Positions 37,518 through 39,178 of a stretch of 64,000 bases of DNA are shown here, piece after piece. Source of the DNA: a virus. Lineage: Duplodnaviria; Heunggongvirae; Uroviricota; Caudoviricetes. Numbering within the stretch: the stretch's first letter is position 1; each line of letters begins with the position of its first letter. The notes under the pieces are model-generated. The model searched no databases, was not told where the DNA came from, and was given only the letters and a program-made list of their open reading frames with translations. The stretch lies in IMG/VR virus record IMGVR_UViG_3300045988_009603, one strand, 5' to 3'. Made by a program: the position numbers and the translations under genes.

Positions 37518-37667
37518 ATCACTTAAGAGTCTTTCTAAGAGGGTTTTTAAGTGATGTGTAGCTCGGTCAGGTATGGTGCGGTGGTGTAAGGTGGTGTCAG
37601 GTGTAGTATGGTGCGGTGATGTGAGGTATGGGTAGTTAGTCTCAGCTACATTAAAATGAGACTTACC
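37518..37667 (+). repeat. composite repeat unit copy 1 (T-rich palindromic box, C-depleted GGT-rich tract, conserved-loop hairpin)
   Basis: ATCACTTAA...TTAAGTGAT box 37518-37555; GGT-rich tract 37564-37635; hairpin AGTCTCA-GCTACATTAAAA-TGAGACT 37631-37667. Confidence 0.6.
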
Positions 37668-37670
37668 TTT

Positions 37671-37786
37671 TTAAAAGGCCTTTTAAGAGGGTCTTTTAAT
37701 GAGGTGGGGTGGTGTAAGGTGGTGTAAGGTCTGGTTCGGTGTGTCGCGGTATGGGTGGATGGTAGTAGCCACGTTAAAAATCTACC
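37671..37786 (+). repeat. composite repeat unit copy 2
   Basis: Palindrome TTAAAAGGCCTTTTAA, box CCTTTTAAGAGGGTCTTTTAATG, GGT-rich tract, hairpin GGTAG-TAGCCACGTTAAAAAT-CTACC. Confidence 0.6.
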
Positions 37787-37793
37787 AAGTTTC

Positions 37794-37821
37794 TAAAGAG
37801 TCTTCTGTTGAGGGTTCTTTA
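37794..37821 (+). repeat. partial third copy of T-rich box directly upstream of gene 37863
   Basis: TAAAGAGTCTTCTGTTGAGGGTTCTTTA resembles TTAAGAGTCTTTCTAAGAGGGTTTTTAA. Confidence 0.45.
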
Positions 37822-37862
37822 CAAACAACTTAACAATCAACTAAAGTGTGGAGCTAAATACT

Positions 37863-38450
37863 ATGAAACTGTTAAATATCAAAATCACTGGTACTCGTCC
37901 TTTCCTGAGCCACGCTGATACGCTGTCAGACCCATTAAATCCTCTGACAAAATATCACAAGTCTCTGTCCAGTAAACGTAAAAAGACTGACGAAGATTAT
38001 GCGCTCTTAGCAGAAAGCCAACTGGTAACTTCTTGTTACTACGATGAGCAACTAGGTTTTGTTATGAACGGTGAGATGATTGAGGCTTGCATCAAGTCTG
38101 GTGCGAAACTCAACAAACTTGGTAAGGTAATTGACCGAGCCATTATGCTGACAGATGTAGTCTTCCCAATGACTATCAAGAACTGTCCAGCAAACCCACA
38201 AGAACTTGCTAAGAATCCAGACTTCATCTATGCTAAGTCTGTTAAGATTGGTACAGCACGAGTTATGAGCTACCGTCCAATCTTCCGTGACTGGTCTGTA
38301 GAGTTTGGATTGATGTTCGATGAAGAGCAAATCACCAAAGAGGAGCTTCTAATGGTTCTTGAAAATGCTGGTAACCTTTGTGGTGTAGGTGATTGGCGTC
38401 CACGCTTTGGTCGTTTTTCTGTAGAAGTTATTTCAGAAGGTAACGTTTAA
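37863..38450 (+). CDS. hypothetical protein (cassette gene 1)
   Basis: Start at ATG 37863 with GTGGAG RBS; 195 aa; no recognised motif. Confidence 0.5.
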
Positions 38451-38452
38451 TT

Positions 38453-38893
38453 ATGAATACAAAAGCATTAGCAGCAAAGTTTAGTTACGGTGACACTGTA
38501 TCACATTCTGAGATGGACACCTTCTTAGGTATTGTGAAGCCAACTTATCAAGGTGACATTGTTAAGTACGAAGATGAAATGAAGGCTTATGCGCTTACAC
38601 GTCTAAACCGACTTGAAAAGTTTATTGAAAAACTTCTTAAAGAAGAGAAGATTTATCTGGTTGCTTCAATGGGTGTTGGTTATCGTGTGGTTGAACCTAA
38701 GCATCAAGCAACTATTGCAAAACGCAAAATGTCTGGTAAGATTGGTCGTGCTTTAAAGCAAGCCACTCAAGCGATTGAGAATGTGAACACTATGGCACTT
38801 AGTCATCAAGAACGTTCACGACTGATTGAACAGCAAAATCACTTAGCTGCTATGAAAGCTAATATTAACAAGCAACGCAGAAAACCTTTCTAA
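38453..38893 (+). CDS. hypothetical protein (cassette gene 2)
   Basis: 146 aa; charged/helical, basic C-terminus; no recognised motif. Confidence 0.5.
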   Translation: MNTKALAAKFSYGDTVSHSEMDTFLGIVKPTYQGDIVKYEDEMKAYALTRLNRLEKFIEKLLKEEKIYLVASMGVGYRVVEPKHQATIAKRKMSGKIGRALKQATQAIENVNTMALSHQERSRLIEQQNHLAAMKANINKQRRKPF

Positions 38894-38904
38894 GTTGACT
38901 AGGT

Positions 38905-38927
38905 AGCCTCTTCGGAGGCTCCTTTTT
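38905..38927 (+). terminator. intrinsic terminator (AGCCTC-TTCG-GAGGCT plus T-run)
   Basis: 6 bp stem, UUCG loop, CCTTTTT tail directly after cassette gene 2. Confidence 0.6.
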
Positions 38928-39041
38928 AAAAGGTCTTTAAACAGGGTCTTTTAACAAGGCTTAGCTTGGTTAGGTATGGTAAGGTGGTGTTTGGTGTTGT
39001 AAGGTATGGGTAGTTAATCGGAGCTACATAAAAATTCGATT
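38928..39041 (+). repeat. composite repeat unit copy 3
   Basis: Box AAAAGGTCTTTAAACAGGGTCTTTTAAC, GGT-rich tract 38961-39013, hairpin AATCG-GAGCTACATAAAAATT-CGATT 39016-39041. Confidence 0.6.
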
Positions 39042-39043
39042 AC

Positions 39044-39178
39044 ATCACTTAAGAGTCTTTTAAGAGGGTTTTTAAGTGAGGTGTGGCACGGTAATGTTAG
39101 GTAGGGTCAGGTCAGGTCAGGTCAGGTGAGGTAAGGTAATGTATGGAAGGATGGCAGTAGCCTTATAAAAAATCTGCC
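39044..39178 (+). repeat. composite repeat unit copy 4, includes (GGTNA)7 tandem pentamers
   Basis: Box ATCACTTAAGAGTCTTTTAAGAGGGTTTTTAAGTGA near-identical to copy 1; GGTCA x4 + GGTGA + GGTAA x2 at 39105-39139; hairpin GGCAG-TAGCCTTATAAAAAAT-CTGCC 39153-39178. Confidence 0.6.

Follow-up and report, generated by a model that had tools for sequence, protein, structure and literature searches.

A Felixounavirus locus matching type II VIPR, with guides that decode to an Escherichia coli satellite-like element

We analysed a pair of genes flanked by composite repeats in a 64,000-nt stretch (hereafter, the window) of the virus record IMGVR_UViG_3300045988_009603, and found that this region is almost certainly a VIPR (Viral Interference Programmable Repeat) locus of type II, in the SUSP1 clade. 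It belongs to a Felixounavirus and contains four vrRNA genes, two upstream and two downstream of vipr and vap. The system is already known, and the window locus is nearly identical to its experimentally characterised SUSP1 example; every computationally testable defining feature of type II VIPR (SUSP1 clade) was found in it. The initial annotation, made from raw sequence, had described four composite units around the genes at 37863-38893, and all four were recovered in these places, all on the plus strand and with exactly four in the window. It had thereby picked out a real and remarkable system that was described only months earlier, in 2026 preprints. Among the functions that it considered, structured small RNAs proved apt, as the units correspond to vrRNA guide RNAs.

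VIPR was first described in bioRxiv preprints of April-June 2026 (10.64898/2026.04.26.720920, 10.64898/2026.04.26.720927), both covered here in part, as a CRISPR-like, phage-encoded system of RNA-guided DNA silencing. According to the covered parts, it consists of a minimal RAMP protein, Vipr (RRM core, G-loop and thumb), an accessory gene, vap, and vrRNAs composed of 9-16 YNNGG repeats, in which GGY is conserved and NN hypervariable, followed by an invariable 3' tail that is a pseudoknot in the SUSP1 clade. One Vipr protomer is reported per GGY repeat (10.64898/2026.04.26.720927), and the NN dinucleotides are reported to pair with double-stranded DNA with every third target base skipped, giving an R-loop triplex that represses transcription. 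In the SUSP1 locus, a single vrRNA precedes vipr-vap and three follow it, and the majority of the guides aim at a satellite phage in E. coli genomes; the SUSP1 vrRNAs (~100 nt) are expressed and co-purify with Vipr, and the complex represses target transcription. VIPR is a proposed evolutionary relative of CRISPR and has been proposed to predate it. Our analysis covers protein identity, RNA anatomy, NN hypervariability and target matches with controls, and draws on the preprints for vrRNA expression, the ribonucleoprotein complex, mechanism and repression.

The C-terminus of the first protein resembles the glycine-rich loop of RAMP proteins, and therefore the PDB was searched. The window Vipr was identical at 192 of 195 positions (98.5%) to chain 36pp_D, “SUSP1 Vipr protein” (E 8.5e-129), and a profile of its homologues matched the same chain at E 3.3e-81. 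Of 14 functional residues named in the covered parts of the cryo-electron microscopy preprint, 13 were present (H17, K33, R39, E71, M72, K82, G87, K88, R138, C173, D177, W178 and R179). The fourteenth, “T175” of the pyrimidine pocket, is V both in the window Vipr (38385-38387) and in the deposited SUSP1 chain. A structure model of the window protein was confident (predicted local distance difference test score, pLDDT, 94.7). The second protein was identical at 145 of 146 positions (99%) to the product of the open reading frame directly downstream of vipr in the SUSP1 locus (L017), which shows the published layout of one upstream and three downstream vrRNAs; from its position, this frame is probably the published vap1. 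Neither locus protein matched Pfam, and in PHROGs both fall only in families of unknown function. The window thus resembles SUSP1 in Vipr, vap, vrRNA design, tail sequences, genome position, the 1-nt skip and the kind of satellite targeted, and differs in its two-plus-two arrangement and in all four guide sequences.

Each unit had been divided into a T-rich box, a GGT-rich tract and a hairpin with an A-rich loop. This order was correct, and the parts themselves are redefined here as a G·U hairpin, a YNNGG tract and an H-type pseudoknot. The GGT-rich tracts are a strict 5-nt YNNGG repeat in exact register with the 3' element, with 15, 10, 10 and 13 units beyond the hairpin in vr1 to vr4, respectively; these counts (10-15) fit the published range. 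A suggestion that the repeats form a protein-binding array is borne out by the report of one protomer per GGY, cited above. Across 62 distinct tracts from 22 loci, in which Vipr proteins are 97-100% identical and the 2-kb locus DNA is mostly 80-96% identical, the entropy per phase was 0.50 bits for Y, 1.95 and 1.86 bits for the two N, and 1.01 and 0.14 bits for the two G; only the near-maximal NN entropy is unbiased, because the unit filter itself demands Y and G. The first G was A or T in ~23% of units. The last unit before the pseudoknot is nearly always TATGG (e.g., 37627-37631, 37750-37754, 39005-39009 and 39142-39146). TCAGG occurs four times in a row in vr4 (39102-39121) and three times in a related guide (L014), and guides seem to evolve through slippage of whole units in addition to point changes.

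The hairpin with the A-rich loop turned out to be a 33-nt H-type pseudoknot, a structure that we recognised independently of the VIPR literature. It has a 4-bp stem 1 (GTAG/CTAC, GTGG/CCAC or AAGG/CCTT), a loop 1 of a single nucleotide, an invariant AG between the stems, a 6-7-bp stem 2 whose sequence differs between all window copies, and a loop 3 formed by the A-rich stretch. A covariance model of the tail, whose structure was limited to stem 2 with stem 1 left out, found exactly four copies in the window, all on the plus strand and all in the locus. In related phages, a comparison for which the initial annotation had called, the tail model found 3-6 copies per related locus, and the cassette was present in some phages and absent from others. 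Among 50 distinct tails, stem 1 was 100% paired in its three sequence versions and stem 2 88% paired, with compensatory changes in 9 of 11 pairs; when partners were slid by 1-3 columns, overall pairing fell from 92% to 29-50%, so that the observed pairing is far beyond chance. Tails of this type were found neither in the distant Vipr-homologue loci L021-L026 nor in the satellite variants L029-L034 discussed below.

For target prediction, guides were decoded by the published 1-nt skip rule, with each GGY replaced by one wildcard base; the defining match level is 80% of NN bases or better. A gapped pattern of 10 units (20 bases) from vr1 had a single exact match in IMG/VR, which extended to 13 consecutive units (26/26 bases) inside the gene of a 682-amino-acid tape-measure protein, with the skipped base at the codon wobble position. 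In a comparison over 3.5 kb, the matching contig had 100% identity to a portion of an element of ~11 kb that is located in an E. coli chromosome (L030:7850-19045; variants in chromosomes L031-L034 and L043-L048). In these elements vr1 matched 27 of 28 NN bases in the tape-measure gene (L030:15371), vr2 matched 17 of 18 in the tape-measure gene of another variant (L047:8131), and vr3 matched 17 of 18 in the intergenic region between the tape-measure and baseplate genes, just downstream of the former (L031:10434). The window itself contained no self-target (best self-match, 22/32). Separately, an 18-base vr2 pattern gave two IMG/VR matches unrelated to satellites, one of them in DNA of 68% GC; these are consistent with chance and were set aside.

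The same rule was then applied to 61 distinct guides, with hairpin-overlapping units and the last unit trimmed, against 11 element variants (124 kb). At a skip of 1 nt, matches of 85% or more were obtained for 37 of the 61 guides. Neither the other skips (0, 2 or 3) nor reversed sequence gave any such match in these variants. In an earlier test, 19 of 56 guides reached 80% or more on five variants, and a flanking chromosome control (52 kb) gave no guide match. These predictions amount to an independent computational replication of the 1-nt skip rule in a different phage set and with explicit controls. Among the 37 matched guides, units 2-10, which were part of the selection, matched their targets at 0.85-0.99, hairpin-overlapping units at 0.31-0.43 and the TATGG unit beside the pseudoknot at 0.39, the last two being near the chance level of ~0.25. 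This last unit behaves as belonging to the constant handle and not as guide; near-chance matching at this position had no mention in the covered parts of the two preprints or in term searches of both.

The targeted element encodes a Dam methylase, a helix-turn-helix protein, small hypothetical proteins, a tape-measure protein, a baseplate protein and a serine recombinase. Its usual insertion site is the DUF72 gene yecE, flanked by yecN and yecD, and some copies lie near tonB or wrbA; related mosaic elements were found in 480-571 of 5,426 complete E. coli genomes (~10%). We take the element to be a probable satellite of the window's phage. Because three guides decode to sites in or next to its tape-measure gene, the likely role of the window guides is to silence a satellite that would exploit the phage, and the tape-measure region of the yecE-integrated element appears to be contested ground between the two. 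On the mechanism given in the preprints, each vrRNA gene would yield a guide of ~85-110 nt with 10-15 YNNGG pentamers and a 3' pseudoknot cap. One Vipr protomer would grip each GGY motif and flip it out, displaying the NN dinucleotides, which would pair with double-stranded DNA, skipping every third target base, so that an R-loop triplex forms and transcription is silenced. In the window's phage, such guides would act on the satellite-like element of E. coli.

A guide RNA coated by Vipr in this manner is also a point of likeness to Class 1 CRISPR-Cas, in which Cas7 covers the crRNA: in both, a RAMP protein with a G-rich loop polymerises along the guide and flips bases out periodically, and a variable guide is capped by a constant structured handle. 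Unlike Class 1 CRISPR-Cas, VIPR has no repeat-spacer array, no cas1/cas2 and no adaptation module; it uses one gene per guide, is encoded by phages and has a non-contiguous guide, in which 2 of 5 RNA bases pair with 2 of 3 DNA bases. The remark in the initial annotation that nothing here resembles CRISPR holds for the sequence, although the system is CRISPR's proposed evolutionary relative. In the region, a CRISPR repeat-spacer pattern was not found; 5-nt periodic tracts and composite units of 120-150 nt were present instead.

Several observations weigh against an intact VIPR locus aimed at a satellite. Expression and binding are known from SUSP1, as given in the preprints, and would extend to the window's phage by analogy. 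The assignment of the element as a Felixounavirus satellite draws on its gene content and a preprint statement. One unit of vr2 is an imperfect GGY unit (TGTGT). Both vr3 and vr4 lie downstream of a terminator-like hairpin (38905-38927), with just a weak promoter match in between. Finally, no site in the 11 sampled satellite variants reached 80% with vr4 (best, 18/24), and two different 10-unit patterns from this guide had no exact match in IMG/VR. The L014 guide, a relative of vr4, matches a small satellite open reading frame (24/26 at L031:6544), and compared with it vr4 has one extra TCAGG unit and one extra AA unit; therefore vr4 may target an unsampled variant or be a slipped copy. Such insertions, together with the imperfect vr2 unit and the loss of vipr from about half of the related phage records, could mean that the locus is decaying or inactive in this phage. 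We consider this very unlikely. Both vipr and vap are intact and share 98-99% identity with their SUSP1 counterparts, whose activity has been shown by experiment; natural targets at a match of 94-96% exist for three of the guides; and every tail and hairpin is intact. By analogy with SUSP1, the VIPR locus is probably active in the window's phage.

A different function of the units was also weighed, namely that they are cis-regulatory or sponge RNAs unrelated to DNA targeting, such as preQ1-like pseudoknot riboswitches, ToxI-like antitoxin repeats, terminators or antiterminators, or a G-quadruplex or R-loop-forming origin. The A-rich loop 3 of the pseudoknot is as in preQ1-I, the G2N3 periodicity could give two-tier quadruplexes, and the G-rich non-template strand lies downstream of a strong promoter. 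Nonetheless, this explanation can hardly be right. An Rfam scan of the region gave no family better than E = 0.88, the variable dinucleotides decode only with a 1-nt skip and specifically to one mobile-element family, and the structure of a near-identical protein has been determined in complex with RNA of this type (PDB 36pp and the covered parts of the preprints). The likeness to preQ1-I and other small H-type pseudoknots extends to a short stem 1, an A-rich loop 3 placed for the minor groove and a similar size, whereas stem 2 in the window has 6-7 bp, the element is at the 3' end of a guide RNA instead of in an mRNA leader, and no Rfam match was obtained (the preQ1-I model, RF00522, had no match at E up to 10 in 37300-39400). 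Similarly, ToxI of type III toxin-antitoxin systems consists of repeated pseudoknotted RNA units beside the gene of their binding protein, but the window units have 120-150 nt instead of 36 nt and are not directly tandem, their variable parts carry target information, and the protein is a RAMP and not the ToxN endoribonuclease. A ToxIN-type (type III) toxin-antitoxin system was accordingly rejected, as unit length and spacing differ and the adjacent protein is Vipr. The candidates weighed ahead of the PDB match and then dropped were a ToxI-like antitoxin mimic, a TRAP-like triplet array, a preQ1-like riboswitch, a Chi-like or R-loop origin, a G-quadruplex array, a boxA-like antitermination site and small open reading frames. 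The features of the VIPR locus in the window are collected in Table 1.

Table 1. Coordinates of the predicted features of the VIPR locus in the window
Feature	Position	Strand	Description
sigma-70-like promoter	37459..37486	+	TTGACA-16-TATACT, 11/12; consensus match only; before HP1-a and vr1
HP1-a	37517..37556	+	class A, CATCACTTAAGAG...AAGTGATG, ~19 bp, many G·U pairs
vr1 guide tract	37557..37631	+	15 YNNGG units, NN = GT TC CA AT GC GG AA GG CA GT AT GC GA GA AT
vr1 tail pseudoknot	37632..37664	+	stem 1 GTAG/CTAC, stem 2 AGTCTC/GAGACT, A-rich loop 3
HP1-b	37666..37704	+	class B, CCTTTTTAAAAGG...TAATGAGG
vr2 guide tract	37705..37754	+	10 YNNGG units, NN = GG GG AA GG AA CT TC GT GC AT
vr2 tail pseudoknot	37755..37787	+	stem 1 GTGG/CCAC, stem 2 TGGTAG/CTACCA
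HP1-c	37789..37826	+	third class, “partial fifth box”, between vr2 and vipr ribosome-binding site
vipr	37863..38450	+	195 amino acids, RAMP-family RNA-binding protein, predicted to form a filament on vrRNA
vap1-type accessory gene	38453..38893	+	146 amino acids; phrog_5926
intrinsic-terminator-like hairpin	38905..38927	+	AGCCTCTTCGGAGGCT + T-run, after vap; T-run common to HP1-d
HP1-d	38921..38959	+	class B
vr3 guide tract	38960..39009	+	10 YNNGG units, NN = TT TT TA AT AA GG TT GT AA AT
vr3 tail pseudoknot	39010..39042	+	stem 1 GTAG/CTAC, stem 2 TAATCG/CGATTA
HP1-e	39043..39081	+	class A
vr4 guide tract	39082..39146	+	13 YNNGG units, NN = GT AC AA TA AG CA CA CA CA GA AA AA AT; includes (TCAGG)x4
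vr4 tail pseudoknot	39147..39179	+	stem 1 AAGG/CCTT, stem 2 TGGCAG/CTGCCA
inverted repeat	39179..39226	+	AAATAAGCTATAA...TTATAGCTTATTT then T's; ends vrRNA array

The T-rich box is a G·U-rich hairpin of 16-20 bp with a UAA-type loop, termed HP1 here, and one copy precedes each vrRNA and one precedes vipr. The latter (HP1-c) had been noticed as a partial fifth box upstream of the first cassette gene and is a fifth hairpin, folding at -13.6 kcal/mol and having the same sequence in 19 related-locus copies. Related phages yielded 72 distinct HP1 versions (114 copies), in which the predicted pairs were formed in 97.7% of cells, and three pairs switched on both sides between classes (C-G/U-A, A-U/U-A and A-U/G-C). 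G·U accounts for 26% of the paired cells, and therefore the helix works only as plus-strand RNA. Its length and double-stranded RNA character suggest that HP1 between vrRNAs could be a processing, maturation or boundary signal. A hairpin before vrRNAs was not mentioned in the covered parts of the two preprints or in term searches of both.

With regard to transcription, the arrangement of promoter, terminator-like hairpin and closing repeat in Table 1 is a layout predicted from sequence. The promoter at 37459-37486 was also found before the single unit of Felix O1-type phages, and the loop of the closing inverted repeat carries the next promoter (TTGACA-17-TATTTT), including its -35 hexamer. 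An additional inverted repeat, GGTGAGTA...TACTCACC at 37472-37516, takes in both the -10 hexamer of the vr1 promoter and the initial ~25 transcribed nt; vipr-less phages have this repeat too, and it could be an operator or a 5' stem.

Presence of the protein genes varies among relatives. Approximately 230 phage records carry unit-like DNA, 118 of which encode a Vipr at 90% identity or above, and about half are without vipr. Seven Felix O1-type phages without vipr and vap (FO1a, Pr103Blw, ULIM9, radambza, JH2, LinBro and D1-2) keep the promoter, one hairpin and one intact vrRNA, with 9-12 YNNGG units, the “last-position” tail and an intact pseudoknot; this orphan unit is located between the ligase gene and the gp86 homologue (L027:2440-2680 in Salmonella phage FO1a, also L037-L042). 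The single unit is a chimera of the first hairpin with the last guide and tail, and the simplest reading of the vipr-less state is a deletion between near-identical class A hairpins. At least four clearly different guides were found among the seven phages, and the radambza guide matched the E. coli satellite (20/22) on a site that it shares with the last vrRNA of a phage carrying vipr. Orphan vrRNAs could use the Vipr of a co-infecting phage. The covered parts of the two preprints and term searches of both contained no mention of orphan vrRNAs in vipr-less Felix O1-type phages.

This polymorphism bears on another proposal of the initial annotation, that the repeats are recombination sites mobilising a two-gene cassette. 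The absence of vipr, vap and the extra units from phages that keep one chimeric unit, the near-identical hairpin copies bracketing the variable segment and a unit copy number of 1-6 among close relatives are all in line with it. On the other hand, neither a recombinase nor a transposase is encoded within the cassette or next to it; the cassette consists of the effector vipr and the accessory gene vap and is not cargo; the units serve as guide RNAs of Vipr, whose gene they flank; ordinary deletion between direct repeats of ~40 nt explains the polymorphism; and the locus has the same position in all genomes examined. The mobilisation proposal is thus largely refuted, and we give it virtually no credence. 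As for the HP1 copies of the VIPR locus, a broader scenario may be imagined, in which they are maturation or boundary signals (e.g., sites of RNase III-type cleavage, or points where the Vipr filament stops), their near identity drives deletions after which about half of the Felixounavirus records retain just one orphan vrRNA with its promoter, and the orphans borrow the Vipr of a co-infecting relative or serve as decoys; we offer it tentatively, as a whole that is rather unlikely to be right.

The window belongs to a Felixounavirus, a myovirus of the Felix O1 / wV8 kind. A query with 2 kb surrounding the locus matched 231 phage records, nearly all of them Escherichia, Salmonella and Shigella phages of this genus, and in all genomes examined the locus was situated between the ligase gene and the gp86 homologue. 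The labels that the repeats bear in existing records are “DR_4” (wV8), “possible binding site of StbAB” (KhF3) or an unnamed repeat_region, and the Felix O1 genome papers and the literature on Felix O1/wV8 repeats gave no functional information for the locus. The repeats can now be annotated as vrRNA1-4, for which targets are predicted, and the adjacent genes, a “hypothetical protein” each in most deposited records, as vipr and vap. Besides, spurious small open reading frames overlap vrRNA genes (window 37699-37833; L038:636-743), and some deposited genomes call them hypothetical proteins. The 44-amino-acid frame at 37699-37833 was rejected as a gene, as it lies wholly over vr2 and HP1-c and has no counterpart at the other three units. 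Finally, the 147-kb GenBank record GU169904.1, “Staphylococcus phage SA1” (hits H5, H50 and H88), holds the present Felixounavirus locus (94% DNA identity), and its Vipr shows 100% identity to that of the window; this record looks chimeric or contaminated.

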